Positions 29,675-44,802 of a stretch of DNA of 64,000 nucleotides are shown piece after piece (the stretch's first letter is position 1; every line of letters starts with the position of its first letter). Under the pieces are notes generated by a model. The model ran no database searches and had not been told where the DNA came from. It saw only the letters and a list, made by a program, of their open reading frames with translations. Source of the stretch: a phage; assembly GCA_037431425.1 (NCBI GenBank), contig GCA_037431425.1_4129.1. One strand, 5' to 3'. Made by a program: the position numbers and the translations under genes.

Positions 29675-29866
29675 ATGTTGATTTATCAATGTGACGGTAT
29701 TCGTGTTCTACAACATCCTTATCTTCAAATCTTTCATGTTCAGATGTTTATGGAAGGTGATAATCCGAGAACTTATGAACGCACATATGATTATTTCACG
29801 GTCAAAGAGTGCGACAACATCGATGAAGTACGACGATTAGTACATGAACTCCAAAACAAAGGTTGA
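29675..29866 (+). CDS. hypothetical protein, 63 aa
   Basis: stop TGA lies inside cassette -35. Confidence 0.6.
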   Translation: MLIYQCDGIRVLQHPYLQIFHVQMFMEGDNPRTYERTYDYFTVKECDNIDEVRRLVHELQNKG

Positions 29867-29892
29867 CTTCGGTCAGCCTTTTTTGTTATAAT
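29861..29892 (+). promoter_or_regulatory. terminator-promoter cassette copy 1
   Basis: GGTTGAC-TTCG-GTCAGCC hairpin plus T6; TTGACT in the stem acts as -35, TATAAT 18 nt downstream. Confidence 0.75.
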
Positions 29893-29920
29893 TATTTTAT
29901 ATTCTAATGGAGTTTAAATT

Positions 29921-38496: not shown

Positions 38497-38910
38497 ATGA
38501 AGAAGTGTATCACGTGTAATATTGAAAAAGACATTAGTGAATTTGGTATAAGAAAAGATACTGGGAAACATAGAAATACATGCAAAGGTTGTAGTAATAT
38601 TACCAGTAAGAAAACCAGAAATAAAAAAACTGATGTCAAAAAACTTGAAGAAATCAAAAGAAAAAATAAAGATTTCATGTCCAGAGTTAAATCATTTTAT
38701 GGTTGTAGTATTTGTATGATGAAGTATCCAGAATGTTTAGACTTTCATCATCTTGATCCGAATATCAAAGAACATACACCAAGTTCTATGTTCAGTAAAA
38801 GTCGAGATGCTATCAAAGATGAAATTCGAAAGTGTATGATTCTTTGTTCTAATCATCATCGCATGGTCCATTCTGGAAGACTATGCTTAATTGAAAGAAA
38901 AAAGGGTTGA
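38497..38910 (+). CDS. HNH homing-type endonuclease, 137 aa
   Basis: CxxC..CxxC zinc motifs; CLDFHHLDP...LCSNHHRMVH. Confidence 0.75.
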   Translation: MKKCITCNIEKDISEFGIRKDTGKHRNTCKGCSNITSKKTRNKKTDVKKLEEIKRKNKDFMSRVKSFYGCSICMMKYPECLDFHHLDPNIKEHTPSSMFSKSRDAIKDEIRKCMILCSNHHRMVHSGRLCLIERKKG

Positions 38911-38936
38911 CTTCTGTCAGCCCTTTTTGCTATAAT
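38904..38936 (+). promoter_or_regulatory. terminator-promoter cassette copy 4
   Basis: GGGTTGAC-TTCT-GTCAGCCC plus T-run; TATAAT 18 nt after -35. Confidence 0.75.
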
Positions 38937-38966
38937 CATTTCATCGAAGCTTGAGGATATTAAAAA

Positions 38967-39449
38967 ATGAACTACTTAGATTTGATTAACTCATATGTAA
39001 TTAGCCCATATATTAACGATGAAAGTATTAAATGTGTAGTATCAGTTGAGGATCACCCAACTGGTGCATTAAAACTATTTGGTGCAGGTCAAATTAACAA
39101 CCGCAACGGGTATACATTTGAATATTTACCATCAAGTGATAAGTTTGGATGTTATGACCACGAAACAAATAAGGGATATATTTGGGGAACACACTTAAGT
39201 ATTGCACAATCTTCGCTTTTCGAAGACCATAATGGGTATATGTGGCGATATTTAGGTGCAGTACTGCTTGATATCGCCCGTAGGTATAAGAAGTGTATAA
39301 CATTAACTTATACTCATACAAATGAATATAAAAACGAAGTTCAAGTTATTGATGAGGATTTTTTTAAAAATATTCCTTATATTGATTTTAACTGTCAAAA
39401 TGGTTATGCTACATACCCAGCAAGTTTTGAAGGTGAAAGATACTTTTAA
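38967..39449 (+). CDS. hypothetical protein, 160 aa
   Basis: GAGGA SD. Confidence 0.75.
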   Translation: MNYLDLINSYVISPYINDESIKCVVSVEDHPTGALKLFGAGQINNRNGYTFEYLPSSDKFGCYDHETNKGYIWGTHLSIAQSSLFEDHNGYMWRYLGAVLLDIARRYKKCITLTYTHTNEYKNEVQVIDEDFFKNIPYIDFNCQNGYATYPASFEGERYF

Positions 39450-39541: not shown

Positions 39542-39952
39542 ATGATCAACAAACATTTCGCAGTTTCCAAAACTGTAACCATCGATAATGAATGGGAAAT
39601 TACCATTCTAAATGATACGGCTCGTGGACTACTGGCAGAGAATATTCTCCAGAAGTATATTGACTGTGAATCTGAGTTGATCATTCATGAACGCACTAAA
39701 TTTCTTCTAATTGGTGGAAAGAAATGTAAAGTTCTGGTATTCACCGACAAAATGACTCGTGCAGATATCATTACTAAATTGGTTAGTTCTTCACGTCATC
39801 GTCCGGGTGTTAATAGATCAATTGATGAGATTAAAGAAATGAAGCCAGGTGATTTATTCATTGTTGCAGGGTTTGATTCAAAAACAAGAAAAATGAGTAT
39901 TTCAGAAATGTATACTAATGCTGAAATGCGTAACAAATTCTTTTCTAACTAA
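39542..39952 (+). CDS. hypothetical protein, 136 aa
   Basis: AGGAG SD. Confidence 0.75.
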   Translation: MINKHFAVSKTVTIDNEWEITILNDTARGLLAENILQKYIDCESELIIHERTKFLLIGGKKCKVLVFTDKMTRADIITKLVSSSRHRPGVNRSIDEIKEMKPGDLFIVAGFDSKTRKMSISEMYTNAEMRNKFFSN

Positions 39953-39987: not shown

Positions 39988-41205
39988 ATGGATAAAAATA
40001 TGATCTTCGAAACTGAAAAAACATTACTTGAAACTTACACTTTGGATAATCTAGTTAAACTTAACCTTGAACGACCAGATATCCAACGCAATTGGCAATG
40101 GAAAAATAATAACCAAAACAATCTTATTATTTCCATTCTAAAGAATTCTCCAATTGGTCAATTTTTAGTATGGAATGAAACTAGTTCAAATACGATGTAC
40201 ATCACTGATGGTCGTCATCGCTATACAGTAATTTCAAACTTCATGAACAATAAATTCCCAGTCACTGTTAGAACTGAAGATGGGACTAAGGATTATTATT
40301 ATGGTTCTGATGATCCAGTAGAAGAAGAAAGCATTTCACTGAAACTTGGTGGAAAGCGTAAAACATGGGATTTTTTATCTAAAGAAGAGCGTGATGCTTT
40401 TCGTGCAAAGGAAGTATCAGTAACATTCGTTCATACAGACGATGCTGAAAAGATTTCAGATATGTTTATTGCAATTAATACTGCATCATCTAATCTATGT
40501 AAAGTTGATTTGTTAGTATGTAAGCACCACACAAATACATATATGAAACGTATTGATAAGCTATTTTCAATTGAGTTTGGCAAAGATGAACCCATGGCAG
40601 CATTAGTGAGTGATTTTTACCGTGCAATCGGTCATTGTTGTGTTAATGGTAATCATGAGAAACACTTATCGAAGCTTAAAGCTAACCCTAAAGTACAGAA
40701 GCGTGAATTTTTTGAAATGTTCTTTATGGTCAAAGCGTTCGCGAAATTATGTGCTAGTGCACTAGATGGTAAGCTAAACTCATACCGTATGCCAAAGATG
40801 AACCAACAAATTGAAGAAGCAATTATTAGTACTGAATCTCTTAGTGAGAAACATGCTGATGCTGATTTTGTTCAGTTTGTTAATGCAGTTCGTGAGATGA
40901 ATTTGGTATCACCTGTAAAATCTGCACAAAAATTTCAATTTATCCATGAAGATATGAAGAATACCTTTAATAAGAGACTCTTTTGTATTTTGATGGGATT
41001 GTTTTATGCTTATGGTACAAGATTGCCATTACATTTTCGTGATGTATGGGGTGACATTTATAATGAAATGTCAGAAAAAAGTTCAGAACTACCTACTAAT
41101 GGAACCGATAGTCCTTCCGCAATTTTAGCTGGCATTGAAATGATTGAACCATACTTTAGTTCAGCATTTAATAATATTCCATTGAGTGCTTACGTGGGAA
41201 AGTGA
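39988..41205 (+). CDS. DUF262 / ParB-like nuclease superfamily protein (GmrS-like), 405 aa
   Basis: N-terminal DIQRNWQW...ITDGRHRYTVIS matches the DUF262 (F/Y)QRxYxW ... DGQQR signature. Confidence 0.65.
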   Translation: MDKNMIFETEKTLLETYTLDNLVKLNLERPDIQRNWQWKNNNQNNLIISILKNSPIGQFLVWNETSSNTMYITDGRHRYTVISNFMNNKFPVTVRTEDGTKDYYYGSDDPVEEESISLKLGGKRKTWDFLSKEERDAFRAKEVSVTFVHTDDAEKISDMFIAINTASSNLCKVDLLVCKHHTNTYMKRIDKLFSIEFGKDEPMAALVSDFYRAIGHCCVNGNHEKHLSKLKANPKVQKREFFEMFFMVKAFAKLCASALDGKLNSYRMPKMNQQIEEAIISTESLSEKHADADFVQFVNAVREMNLVSPVKSAQKFQFIHEDMKNTFNKRLFCILMGLFYAYGTRLPLHFRDVWGDIYNEMSEKSSELPTNGTDSPSAILAGIEMIEPYFSSAFNNIPLSAYVGK

Positions 41206-41414
41206 AAAAACGTGGTGTACTAAATACACCACAAAAACAATATCTTTTGAAAAGATATTCTTTGTGTTATCTTTGTGGACAGAAGATATCGGATTCAGAT
41301 ATACTACATTTTGACCATGTTCAATCATTAAAAGATGGTGGTAGTAATGAATTAAGTAATATACGACCAACGCACTCCATTTGTAATTTACGTAAAGGTG
41401 CTAAGAGTATGTAA
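41202..41414 (+). CDS. small HNH endonuclease (GmrD-like partner), 70 aa
   Basis: GTGA overlap with DUF262 stop; HFDHVQSLKDGGSNELSNIRPTHSICNLRKG is a classic H-N-H. Confidence 0.7.
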   Translation: MKKRGVLNTPQKQYLLKRYSLCYLCGQKISDSDILHFDHVQSLKDGGSNELSNIRPTHSICNLRKGAKSM

Positions 41415-41463
41415 AGCTAATACTCCCCAAAGATGGGGAGTATATATAATTAAAGGGATTTAT

Positions 41464-42300
41464 ATGAGTATTAAAAATAAATTAGATCAGTATTATACAA
41501 ATCCAGAGTATGCTAAAAAATGTTATACTAAATCATTAGAGTTTATTTCGTCTCGAATGGACATTAATTCATCTTATTATATGGAGCCTTGTGTTGGGAC
41601 TGGTTCGTTTTATCTACAGTTTCCTGAATCCCGTCGATTTGGGTGTGACATTGATCCGGTACATCTTGATGAAAATGTTATCCATTCCGATTTTTTACTT
41701 GAATTTGGTATCAATGCAAGAAGTAAAGGTGAACCAATACTTGTTATAAGTAATCCACCTTTTGGGAAAATTTCTTCTTTAGCCATTAAGTTTTTTAATA
41801 AATGTGCATCAATGCCTGAAGTGAAATATATTTGTTTTATTGTCCCTATGACATTTCGAAAAGCAGCAACACAAAATAAACTCAATGAGATGTTTCACCT
41901 GGTATTAGATGAAGATTCACCAAATGACGCTTTTATACTGCACGGAGAACCACATCATGTACCATGCGTATTTCAGATATGGGAACGTAGGGATACAGTT
42001 CGTGAGAAACATGAGATTAAGAACAAATCAGACTATTTCGACTATTGTACTAAGGAAGAGGCTGATGTTTTTATAAAACGTGTAGGAACCAAAGCAGGTG
42101 AGTATGCCGAGCCAGGGAAAGAACACAAAGATGCAAGTATGTACTACATTAAAACTAAGTATGTTGATGAAATCATTAAGGTTTTGAAAAGTAAAGATTA
42201 CCTTGATGAGATAAAACGTATACGTAAAACCACAGCAGGGGTATACTGTGTGTCCAAATCTGAAATCGTTCTTAATATTGAAAAACGTTTGAATCTTTGA
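41464..42300 (+). CDS. DNA methyltransferase, NPPF (N6-A or N4-C) gamma-type, 278 aa
   Basis: motif I EPCVGTGSF, then motif IV SNPPFGK; start moved to ATG 41464 after hairpin ACTCCCC..GGGGAGT and AAGGGA SD. Confidence 0.75.
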   Translation: MSIKNKLDQYYTNPEYAKKCYTKSLEFISSRMDINSSYYMEPCVGTGSFYLQFPESRRFGCDIDPVHLDENVIHSDFLLEFGINARSKGEPILVISNPPFGKISSLAIKFFNKCASMPEVKYICFIVPMTFRKAATQNKLNEMFHLVLDEDSPNDAFILHGEPHHVPCVFQIWERRDTVREKHEIKNKSDYFDYCTKEEADVFIKRVGTKAGEYAEPGKEHKDASMYYIKTKYVDEIIKVLKSKDYLDEIKRIRKTTAGVYCVSKSEIVLNIEKRLNL

Positions 42301-42308
42301 AAATTATA

Positions 42309-42340
42309 GGTTGACTTCGGTCAGCCTTTATTGTTATAAT
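42309..42340 (+). promoter_or_regulatory. terminator-promoter cassette copy 5
   Basis: GGTTGAC-TTCG-GTCAGCC; TATAAT 18 nt after -35. Confidence 0.75.
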
Positions 42341-42368
42341 CATTTTATATAACCAAGAGGATGATTAC

Positions 42369-42872
42369 ATGACACGCATTAATTTAGTACACGTTAAAGA
42401 ACTTGCTGACCAACATTTGATGGCTGAATATCGTGAACTTCCACGGGTGTTCGGTGCTGTACAAAAACACGTTCAAGCACGTAAGCGTGTCCGTGATTTT
42501 AAAATTAACAGTACTTATCTGTTAGGTTCAGGCCATGTGACATTCTTCTACGACAAGTTACTGTACTTACAAAAGCGTCATGTTGAGATTGTTAACGAAT
42601 GTTTGCGTCGTGGTATGAAGATTCAAAACACGGAAGTAAACGACATCAGCGGCTTCCCTGATGAGTTTTGTAATGACTACGTACCATCGGAGTCAGAGAT
42701 TAAAATGTCTCGTGACCGTTTGATTGAGAAGCTCCAGATGAAGCCTAAGTGGTATAAGTTTACTGCTGTTGAAATTCCACAGTACGTTAAAGATATGCAG
42801 AACGTAAAATCTAGTACTGATATGTTCGAAGAAATTGAAGAGCAAATCAAAGATGAAATGAATAATTATTAA
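42369..42872 (+). CDS. denV: pyrimidine-dimer DNA glycosylase (T4 endonuclease V family), 167 aa
   Basis: [41 protein letters not shown] is near-identical in pattern to T4 EndoV; C-terminal extension of about 30 aa. Confidence 0.9.
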
Positions 42873-42878
42873 AGGTAA

Positions 42879-42911
42879 GGGTTGACTTCGGTCAACCCTT
42901 TTTGCTATAAT
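42879..42911 (+). promoter_or_regulatory. terminator-promoter cassette copy 6
   Basis: GGGTTGAC-TTCG-GTCAACCC plus T-run; TATAAT 18 nt after -35. Confidence 0.75.
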
Positions 42912-42939
42912 CATTTCATCAACTACAGAGGGTAACGAA

Positions 42940-43775: not shown

Positions 43776-44117
43776 ATGCTTGAGTTTTTTAATTCAAATA
43801 CAATGCTTGGTATTACTTTAATTTACATGTTTGTATTTTTGTTTTATCATTCAATTGTAATTAGTCTGTGGTATTTTAAAAGGAAAGTTGTTTTTAAATT
43901 GTATTCGTATGATAATGTATTCTTAGTTGTATATAGTATTGTACAAGGTGGGTTTATTTTATTTGGTATTATGACTTATTTCATTTATCGATTGGAAATT
44001 GATAATACACCACACATTACACAATATGTTGTGTTTTCGGGACTAATCGTGTGGTTGTTGACATGTGTCGTGTACTTTATTATTAAAGCTCGTGACAAAA
44101 TTAAAGGGGAATTCTAA
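43776..44117 (+). CDS. small polytopic membrane protein family, 113 aa
   Basis: GGAGA SD; 3 TM; tail RDKIKGEF. Confidence 0.75.
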   Translation: MLEFFNSNTMLGITLIYMFVFLFYHSIVISLWYFKRKVVFKLYSYDNVFLVVYSIVQGGFILFGIMTYFIYRLEIDNTPHITQYVVFSGLIVWLLTCVVYFIIKARDKIKGEF

Positions 44118-44455
44118 TGTTAACATTTTTTCAGTCAGATACAATGATTAGTATTACGTTGATTTATCTGTTTGGATTTTTCTTTTATCATGCACTAGTT
44201 GTAGTACTATGGTATTTTAAAAAGAATATAGTTTTCAAACTGTATCCTAAAGGAAACGTTTCATTACTTCTTTTCACTATTATCCAAGGTATCTTTGCAA
44301 TTTTTGGTATTACTGCACATTTAATTTATTGTGCTAATCCACATTTGAACTCAATATCACAATACATTGTATTTTTTGGATTACTAATTTGGGTACTAAT
44401 ATACGTAACTAATCTCATCATTAATGGTAGAGCTAAAATTCACGGGGACTTTTAA
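44117..44455 (+). CDS. small polytopic membrane protein family, 112 aa
   Basis: TAATG coupling; close paralogue of 43776. Confidence 0.75.
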   Translation: MLTFFQSDTMISITLIYLFGFFFYHALVVVLWYFKKNIVFKLYPKGNVSLLLFTIIQGIFAIFGITAHLIYCANPHLNSISQYIVFFGLLIWVLIYVTNLIINGRAKIHGDF

Positions 44456-44802
44456 TGTTTGAATCTTATCTTGACTTTTTAAGGAATAGTCCAGTAGCAC
44501 ACTCACTTGCTGGGATTGTTCTATCAGGCTATATCACATTTTGGGTAGTTATGTTTCTAGGATGGTATTTTAAACGACAATTCTATAAGCGTAACGGTGA
44601 AGATTTTATGAATTCTGCTATTAATCAATCGTTGTTTGCATCAACATTGATAGCATCAATTGTAGCAACACTCACTGGTGCAGTTCTACCAGCATTCGCC
44701 GCAGTTTACGGCACACTTGGAGTGGTATGTTTATCTTTTATATTGATCATTAAACTTTGTTGTGTTATGATTGAACTTCGAAATAAGATACCGGAGGAAT
44801 GA
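44455..44802 (+). CDS. small polytopic membrane protein family, 115 aa
   Basis: TAATG coupling; tail RNKIPEE. Confidence 0.75.
   Translation: MFESYLDFLRNSPVAHSLAGIVLSGYITFWVVMFLGWYFKRQFYKRNGEDFMNSAINQSLFASTLIASIVATLTGAVLPAFAAVYGTLGVVCLSFILIIKLCCVMIELRNKIPEE

Follow-up and report, generated by a model that had tools for sequence, protein, structure and literature searches.

The window, a stretch of 64,000 nucleotides (nt), is part of an Asteriusvirus jumbo phage that is 98.5% identical to Escherichia phage ph0011, and its region 39988-41414 encodes a DUF262 protein and, in another frame, an HNH nuclease segment. An earlier analysis of the letters alone (below, the sequence-only reading) had taken the DNA to be of phage origin, which this identity bears out, and had described the region as a split, translationally coupled gene pair followed by a methyltransferase. 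Its domain calls hold (DUF262/ParB-like, 65.6 bits, and canonical HNH, 45.2 bits, both in Pfam; NPPF methyltransferase, PADLOC MTase_II), as does the overlap of the DUF262 stop codon with a GTG start of the HNH segment at 41202 (GTGA). The split pair itself is probably wrong, since this GTG is found only in the window, ph0011 and one metagenomic locus (L009), and a slippery heptamer at the same place is invariant. Judging from the comparison of homologous loci, the region very probably is one gene recoded by a programmed -1 ribosomal frameshift, and not two genes. As the best overall explanation we propose, with a probability of about 0.65, a recoded sensor-nuclease gene residing in a phage cassette, the favoured role of which is methylation-gated. 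The elements of this gene are the following.

39988-41205, plus strand: the DUF262 open reading frame (ORF) in the zero frame, 405 amino acids (aa), or 401 aa with the start at 40000.
41196-41202, plus strand: the slippery heptamer G_GGA_AAG, the proposed -1 frameshift site, with the zero-frame codons GGA and AAG.
41202-41414, plus strand: the HNH ORF in the -1 frame, 70 codons, the C-terminal part of a predicted frameshift product of ~475 aa.

The heptamer follows the X_XXY_YYZ pattern and stands in register at the end of the DUF262 ORF, which closes with GTG GGA AAG TGA, the zero-frame stop TGA (41203-41205) being directly 3' of the heptamer. G_GGA_AAG is also the slip site of lambda G/GT. 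It is listed as highly shift-prone in E. coli in a review (PMC5009743). At the other end, the DUF262 ORF starts at 39988 or 40000, and the methionine at 40000 is kept by the homologues.

The comparison included metagenomic contigs (L004-L010), the proteins of which are 74-87% identical to the window protein; the contigs (L011, L012, L013 and L014/L015) that carry the nearest remote relatives, P0005, P0007, P0008 and P0009, respectively, which came up when the hypothetical fusion was used as query in an exhaustive phmmer search and share 22-34% (phmmer) or 21-32% (tblastn) identity with the window; and the locus of Cronobacter phage GAP32, located by tblastn. Nine sequenced homologous loci from six deep lineages have exactly this heptamer, even where protein identity falls to 21-22%; the heptamer-bearing loci are the window, ph0011, L009, L004, L006, L011, L012, L013, L014 and GAP32, and their GC content spans 25 to 45%. 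At every homologous locus with the heptamer, the HNH ORF is in the -1 frame. In each of the remote relatives, Gly-Lys closes the predicted zero-frame product, G404 and K405 being invariant. Given these two residues and the gene's own codon usage, the chance of the exact heptamer is 0.002-0.02 per lineage, and the product of these probabilities over the nine loci is 5e-20. A second copy of the heptamer was found nowhere else in the genes of any of the nine loci.

The start codon of the HNH ORF behaves differently. The first ATG, GTG or TTG in the HNH frame is placed as follows.

Window, ph0011 and L009: GTG at the junction.
L013: none.
L012: only a TTG, with six codons left to the stop.
L004, L006, L011, L014 and GAP32: 12-19 codons 3' of the heptamer.

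Moreover, a TAG one codon (CGT) 5' of the heptamer shuts the -1 frame of L004, so that this frame can be entered only at or past the slip site. The zero-frame stop adjoins the heptamer in seven of the nine loci for which the junction is shown, and it comes one codon later in L006 and six codons later in L004. Thus, the heptamer is invariant although the start codon at the junction is not conserved, from which we infer a single recoded gene. A profile search of a set of 5.8 billion proteins yielded no further members of the frameshift clade, a scan of viral contigs with alignment A1 found nothing, and scans of viral contigs with single proteins added one contig only, a near-identical jumbo phage.

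The segment 3' of the heptamer looks like a functional part of the protein. The 70-aa ORF matches the Pfam HNH family PF01844 with 45.2 bits against a cut-off of 21.4 and carries the signature CxxC...DH...N...HxxCN. In an alignment of 31 sequences (eight deduced frameshift products and 23 in-frame relatives) the junction of the frameshift products is colinear with that of the in-frame DUF262-HNH fusions; C427, C430, H444, G451, G452, N458 and C466 are invariant, and R409, D443, H463 and N467 are at least 90% conserved. Of these, R409 is only four residues past the slip site and hence inside the segment that has no start codon. Over the 16 codons that separate the heptamer from the alternative internal start, the ratio of nonsynonymous to synonymous substitution rates (dN/dS) is 0.2-0.46 between clades, and the other two frames are interrupted by stops. 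Given the conserved residues, the low dN/dS and the stops in the other frames, the start-less stretch after the heptamer is to be read as coding and under selection.

The zero-frame product is a recognizable sensor protein. It matches the Pfam family GmrSD_N/DUF262 over residues 27-179 (65.6 bits; cut-off 33.2) and has all three DUF262 motifs, described as QRxxxW, DGxQR and FxxxN (PMC12065111): QRNWQW (Q33-W38), the variant DGRHR (74-78) and FIAIN (160-164). Among the 31 aligned relatives, Q33, R34, D74 and R78 never vary, and conservation is at least 90% for G75, F160 and N164. Its layout is that of a ParB/Srx-like DUF262 nucleoside triphosphate (NTP)-binding domain followed by a helical ParBDB-like middle domain, without a nuclease. 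The best PADLOC match, with NsnA (E = 2.6e-15), extends from residue 29 to residue 390 of the protein and over positions 68-379 of the 385 in the profile. Thus, the zero-frame product resembles NsnA of the Menshen system over its full length, both being two-domain sensors without a nuclease (PMC12065111). Unlike in Menshen, the effector here would be appended by the predicted recoding, and genes for the NsnB ATPase and the NsnC effector were not found beside the DUF262 gene in the window or at any related locus, the neighbours in their place being a 136-aa protein, the HNH segment and the methyltransferase. Since NsnB and NsnC are absent, this is not a Menshen system.

For the 475-aa fusion, an AlphaFold2 model was built from a 48-sequence alignment from which the frameshift fusions of other loci had been left out. 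It has a mean predicted local distance difference test (pLDDT) of 87.7 and a predicted template modelling score (pTM) of 0.78, and confidence is low only in residues 1-7 and in the linker 405-407. The best full-length match of the model in the PDB according to Foldseek is BrxU of the GmrSD family (E = 3.4e-4), with SspE close behind. Nothing useful came out of sequence searches of the PDB, in which the queries were the DUF262 protein, the methyltransferase and a small-protein profile.

The fused arrangement is also the usual one among more distant proteins. Nine of ten distant relatives scanned are in-frame fusions of an N-terminal GmrSD_N and a C-terminal HNH domain, 405-471 aa in length, and thus the in-frame fusion is the family norm, which the jumbo-phage clade appears to reach by recoding. 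These uncharacterised proteins share the domain order, the length range of 405-471 aa and the invariant catalytic residues with the predicted frameshift product; they differ from it in being single ORFs, in having the DGQQR motif and in an identity of only 17-23% to the window protein. In the cellular in-frame relative P0179, the gene overlaps by 8 nt a gene with HSDR_N_2, N6_Mtase and Eco57I domains, followed by a Methylase_S gene, all in one operon. In this arrangement, as seen on a metagenomic contig (L024, 7001-12079) with 609 aa encoded by the HSDR_N_2 + N6_Mtase + Eco57I gene, the DUF262-HNH protein may stand in for the restriction subunit of a type I/IIG-like system. Another in-frame relative stands alone in a prophage-like region.

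The GmrSD-type architecture suggested by the sequence-only reading stands in part. Like GmrSD, BrxU and SspE, the predicted fusion begins with a ParB/Srx-like DUF262 domain (motifs I-III), continues with a helical middle part and ends in a His-Me-finger nuclease. These NTP-dependent DUF262 + DUF1524 nucleases serve in type IV restriction and in defence that senses phosphorothioate; the GmrSD enzymes cut DNA with modified bases such as glc-5hmC, and their cleavage is stimulated by NTP. In contrast to them, its nuclease is a PF01844 HNH with a CxxC zinc finger, which belongs to the same His-Me-finger superfamily as DUF1524 but to another family; DUF1524 (PF07510) itself, the motif of which is (D/E)H...N...N, had no Pfam match in the proteins of 39988-41414. 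Motif II is the DndB-like DGRHR rather than DGQQR, and the protein is phage-encoded, lies beside a methyltransferase and has its nuclease joined by a predicted frameshift. As DUF1524, which defines GmrSD, is missing, we do not file it as a GmrSD member.

The gene does not stand alone. Its companions in the window are the following.

39542-39952, plus strand: a small partner protein, 136 aa, immediately 5' of the DUF262 gene.
41420-41443, plus strand: a hairpin between the HNH stop and the methyltransferase start, with a 10-base-pair (bp) stem, z = -2.7.
41464-42300, plus strand: a DNA methyltransferase of the N6-adenine type with gamma motif order, 278 aa, PADLOC MTase_II, E = 5.7e-34.

The succession of a hairpin and a gamma-type methyltransferase had been noticed from the sequence alone and is confirmed: motif I (EPCVGTGSF) is N-terminal to motif IV (NPPF), and no large domain separates the two. 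The methyltransferase matches phrog_5172 (E = 1.7e-89) and no Pfam-A model at E <= 0.1. The hairpin has no T-run after its stem and was not scored as a terminator in the scan. The conserved 136-aa protein, missed by the sequence-only reading, is a fourth component of the cassette: it is found directly 5' of the DUF262 gene in every lineage with upstream sequence available and is homologous across lineages (E = 2e-14 and 8e-9), with no family match in the library scans.

Linkage of the nuclease to the methyltransferase, also proposed earlier, is seen in five of seven lineages (the window clade; L004; L006; L012, where the methyltransferase is upstream; L015/L017; GAP32), and in two genera the two are gained or lost together. 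The whole cassette is missing from phages 121Q and WPEC3. CBB, a relative of GAP32, was reported to be without GAP32_519 (PMC5259590), and with tblastn the DUF262 gene was not found in CBB, the only matches in phage records being ph0011 and GAP32. Thus, within two phage genera, genomes have the cassette either as a whole or not at all. Its parts diverge at different rates, as is seen from the identities between the window and the syntenic locus of GAP32.

Flanking genes: 48-51%.
Methyltransferase: 69% (69-72% for the GAP32 and L015 copies).
HNH segment: 46%.
DUF262 protein: 22% (21-22% for GAP32, L015 and L017).
Small protein: 19%.

By this comparison, evolution is fast in the putative sensor and the small partner, and slow in the methyltransferase.

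If the gene is recoded as proposed, most ribosomes would stop at the TGA at 41203 and produce the 405-aa NsnA-like sensor without a nuclease, and a fraction would slip back by one base on G_GGA_AAG, enter the HNH frame and produce the ~475-aa fusion, with the three-part layout of the GmrSD/BrxU/SspE-type NTP-dependent nucleases. Such a fusion probably has GmrSD-like nuclease activity, and NTP-dependent engagement of DNA would precede cutting by the HNH domain. Frameshifting would also set a fixed low ratio of nuclease-bearing to nuclease-less subunits; as dimers are the active form of ParB-like proteins, assemblies of both kinds of subunit could restrain or regulate cutting. The methyltransferase, in turn, would mark phage DNA as self, so that the nuclease would hit unmarked DNA of the host or of a co-infecting phage. 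This methylation-gated self/non-self role of the cassette is the reading that we tentatively favour, at somewhat less than even odds. The sequence-only reading had suggested an exclusion weapon against other phages together with a protective methylase, roles that are no more than putative. It is possible, if rather doubtful, that the conserved frameshift serves in addition as a built-in dosage or safety control of such a nuclease, with co-assembly of the long and short forms.

Two hairpins follow the heptamer.

41212-41232, plus strand: an 8-bp stem-loop, a possible stimulator, GUGGUGUA-CUAAA-UACACCAC, 9 nt 3' of the heptamer, z = -4.5.
41239-41259, plus strand: a second hairpin, 3' of the stem-loop at 41212-41232.

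The first stem is kept in ph0011 (with one G-U pair) and in L009 (with two compensatory pairs, but weaker), and non-homologous hairpins lie 7 and 4 nt 3' of the heptamer in L012 and L013 (z = -3.4 and -2.75, respectively).

Several observations weigh against the proposed explanation. A downstream hairpin is significant in three lineages only (window/ph0011, L012 and L013), the fold scan found none in L004, L006, L011, L014 and GAP32, and an Rfam search gave no match to any frameshift element. The hairpins thus being patchy and without an Rfam family, the conserved signals of the putative shift site are the heptamer and the usually adjacent stop. In the window clade, the GTG at 41202 allows independent or coupled initiation; starts shortly 5' of CxxC are present in L006 and L014 (ATG) and in L004 and GAP32 (TTG), and in principle these could give a truncated 55-aa HNH protein. 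As regards the cassette, the methyltransferase is not adjacent in L011 or L013, and identities of 69-72% for the methyltransferase versus 21-22% for the DUF262 protein mean that the two do not co-evolve like a specificity-matched restriction-modification pair. The methyltransferase family is present in 230 phage records, mostly without a DUF262 gene, and in both records inspected, tuntematon (phAPEC8-like) and JES2013 (rV5-like), the orphan methyltransferase is situated in the replication module.

The last points bear on the alternative that survives best, although we regard it as unlikely: the same recoding could produce a classical type IV enzyme directed against the hypermodified DNA of rivals such as T-even phages, the methyltransferase being an unrelated anti-restriction orphan. 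The closest characterised structural relatives (BrxU, GmrSD, SspE) do sense modified DNA (PMC12065111), the methyltransferase family is common as an orphan in other phages, and fast divergence of the sensor and the small partner is what an arms race predicts. Vice versa, the methyltransferase is repeatedly linked to the nuclease and is gained or lost with it in two genera, a cellular relative is in an operon with N6-methyltransferase and S-subunit genes, and the DUF1524 domain that defines these enzymes is absent.

The genomic setting of the cassette is relevant to another alternative. In phage 121Q, the homologue of gp216 is directly followed by endonuclease V, and in WPEC3 only a 137-aa HNH gene is found between them. 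The window and ph0011 have ~3.4 kb extra, comprising a 160-aa ORF, the 136-aa ORF, the DUF262 gene, the HNH segment and the methyltransferase. This insert is placed between two repeated units.

38905-38941, plus strand: the left terminator-promoter cassette, a hairpin containing the -35 box TTGACT, then TATAAT.
42309-42345, plus strand: the right terminator-promoter cassette, a repeat unit.

The sequence-only reading had taken these units for mobile-looking brackets of the module. They are indeed present at 38905 and 42309 and delimit the WPEC3 indel, the single WPEC3 copy being a chimera of both, but they are ordinary repeats with further copies at 29861 and 42880. In all, the unit of ~37 nt occurs four times on the plus strand (29861-29897, 38905-38941, 42309-42345 and 42880-42916) and consists of a GC-rich terminator hairpin, within which the -35 box TTGACT is found, together with a T-run and the -10 box TATAAT. 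In T4, promoter-early stem-loop (PeSL) cassettes, which are repeated units of a terminator hairpin and a sigma-70 promoter, flank accessory genes and can bring about their gain or loss by recombination. The units of the window are similar in being repeated hairpin-promoter elements that flank accessory genes, and differ in the phage group (Asteriusvirus) and in sequence. The comparison with WPEC3, the single one from which a role in recombination is deduced, suggests that terminator-promoter units mediate gain and loss of gene cassettes.

Such a position could also be that of a selfish mobile cassette, in which a homing-type DUF262-HNH enzyme would cut cassette-less phage genomes close to the endonuclease V locus and spread through recombinational repair, with the methyltransferase as a passenger or a protector of the target site. 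We consider this improbable. Near-identical Asteriusvirus genomes differ in having or lacking the cassette, which fits exactly between two repeated regulatory units, and free-standing HNH genes are nearby (38497-38910, GAP32_516, GAP32_520). However, DUF262 + ParBDB + HNH is the layout of a defence nuclease, unlike that of known homing enzymes; the syntenic position in two genera with ~50% identical flanks suggests an old residence with losses; and the methyltransferase, the putative "host gene", is gone together with the nuclease in the cassette-less relatives. The 70-aa ORF as a free-standing HNH homing endonuclease was rejected, being the HNH core only, without a DNA-binding module of its own and without a start codon in most relatives.

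As for the recoding itself, a competitor would be the two separate proteins of the sequence-only reading: a DUF262 protein of 405 aa, and an HNH protein of 70 aa made on its own by termination-reinitiation at GTGA, held together without a covalent bond as are GmrS and GmrD. Two subunits were described for GmrSD of E. coli CT596 (PMC4619093), the GTG at 41202 does overlap the TGA in the window, ph0011 and L009, and one gene caller annotated the 70-aa ORF in L010. Yet seven other loci have GTA, GCC or nothing at the position of the GTG, with the heptamer invariant, and a Shine-Dalgarno sequence at a usable distance was not found for the HNH ORF. Residues 5' of the alternative internal starts, including R409, are conserved, and the related proteins are single chains. 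All this makes two proteins quite improbable. A dead remnant, in which an old frameshift mutation broke a fused gene and left only the DUF262 part functional, would account for two parts in different frames and for an HNH ORF passed over by annotators, but is hardly credible, as the HNH frame is open and has kept all its catalytic and zinc-binding residues despite saturated synonymous sites, and as the exact heptamer is kept against a codon-usage probability of 0.002-0.02 per lineage. Among the trivial causes, a sequencing error was ruled out by the same frame arrangement in 10 independent assemblies, transcriptional slippage is unlikely with only A3 in the conserved element, and a pseudogene is unlikely given the conserved catalytic residues and heptamer.

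A gene recoded by programmed frameshifting would have parallels in other systems. The known cases in phages and bacteria are for the most part genes of tail chaperones, capsid proteins and transposases, and dnaX. Lambda G/GT, dnaX tau/gamma and IS3 OrfA/OrfAB share with the present gene an X_XXY_YYZ heptamer conserved across divergent homologues and, as predicted here, a short and a C-terminally extended product at a fixed ratio. In contrast to them, this is a restriction-like nuclease gene with no conserved stimulator and with a stop that usually adjoins the heptamer. Full-text literature searches found no paper linking ribosomal frameshifting with DUF262, GmrSD or HNH nucleases, and no such nuclease case is listed in the recoding review (2016; PMC5009743) or in the PRFect paper. 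What is new, then, would be a known nuclease architecture assembled by programmed frameshifting in a phage cassette. If true, this would add a new gene class, a GmrSD-like nuclease, to the recoded genes, and it would suggest that enzymes of this family are sensitive to the proportion of sensor-only and sensor-nuclease subunits. Should the frameshift also act as the dosage or safety control of a methylation-gated nuclease, this would be the first restriction-like enzyme with an activity set by translational recoding. The cassette of the small partner, the recoded nuclease and the methyltransferase is a candidate phage-borne tool against host or rival DNA, and would, if the favoured role is correct, represent an offensive restriction-modification module in jumbo phages.

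There is also a consequence for annotation. At the place of the HNH segment, all contigs as well as the records of GAP32 and ph0011 show an annotation "gap" of 220-340 nt, the segment being unannotated in the public records of GAP32 (NC_019401, L016; 4631-4864) and ph0011 (L001; 5797-6015), and the public labels of GAP32_518 and vBEcoMphAPEC6_02790 are plain hypothetical or DUF262 protein. Since the HNH part was missed in ph0011, GAP32 and every metagenomic contig examined, "DUF262 only" genes elsewhere may be mis-annotated as well.

Some other genes around the cassette deserve mention. Just 5' of it, at 38497-38910 on the plus strand, lies the gene of a free-standing 137-aa HNH endonuclease (phrog_2255, E = 1.9e-31), which is present in WPEC3 and in GAP32 (GAP32_516, 48% identity) and absent from 121Q; it probably is a separate homing-type element. 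The 160-aa ORF within the insert (38967-39449, plus strand) is restricted to the window clade (81% identity in L009), has no family match and is absent from the other cassette-bearing lineages. On the right side, 42369-42872 (plus strand) encodes a 167-aa pyrimidine-dimer glycosylase of the T4 endonuclease V (DenV) type; profiles cover its N-terminal part only (phrog_1183, residues 1-133), leaving the C-terminal ~30 residues unmatched, and DenV-type homologues are also found near the DUF262 gene in L009 and L013. Further downstream, from 43776-44802 (plus strand) onward, there is a tandem array of paralogous predicted membrane proteins of ~112-115 aa with abutting or overlapping stops and starts, which in ph0011 forms a run of about eight genes.

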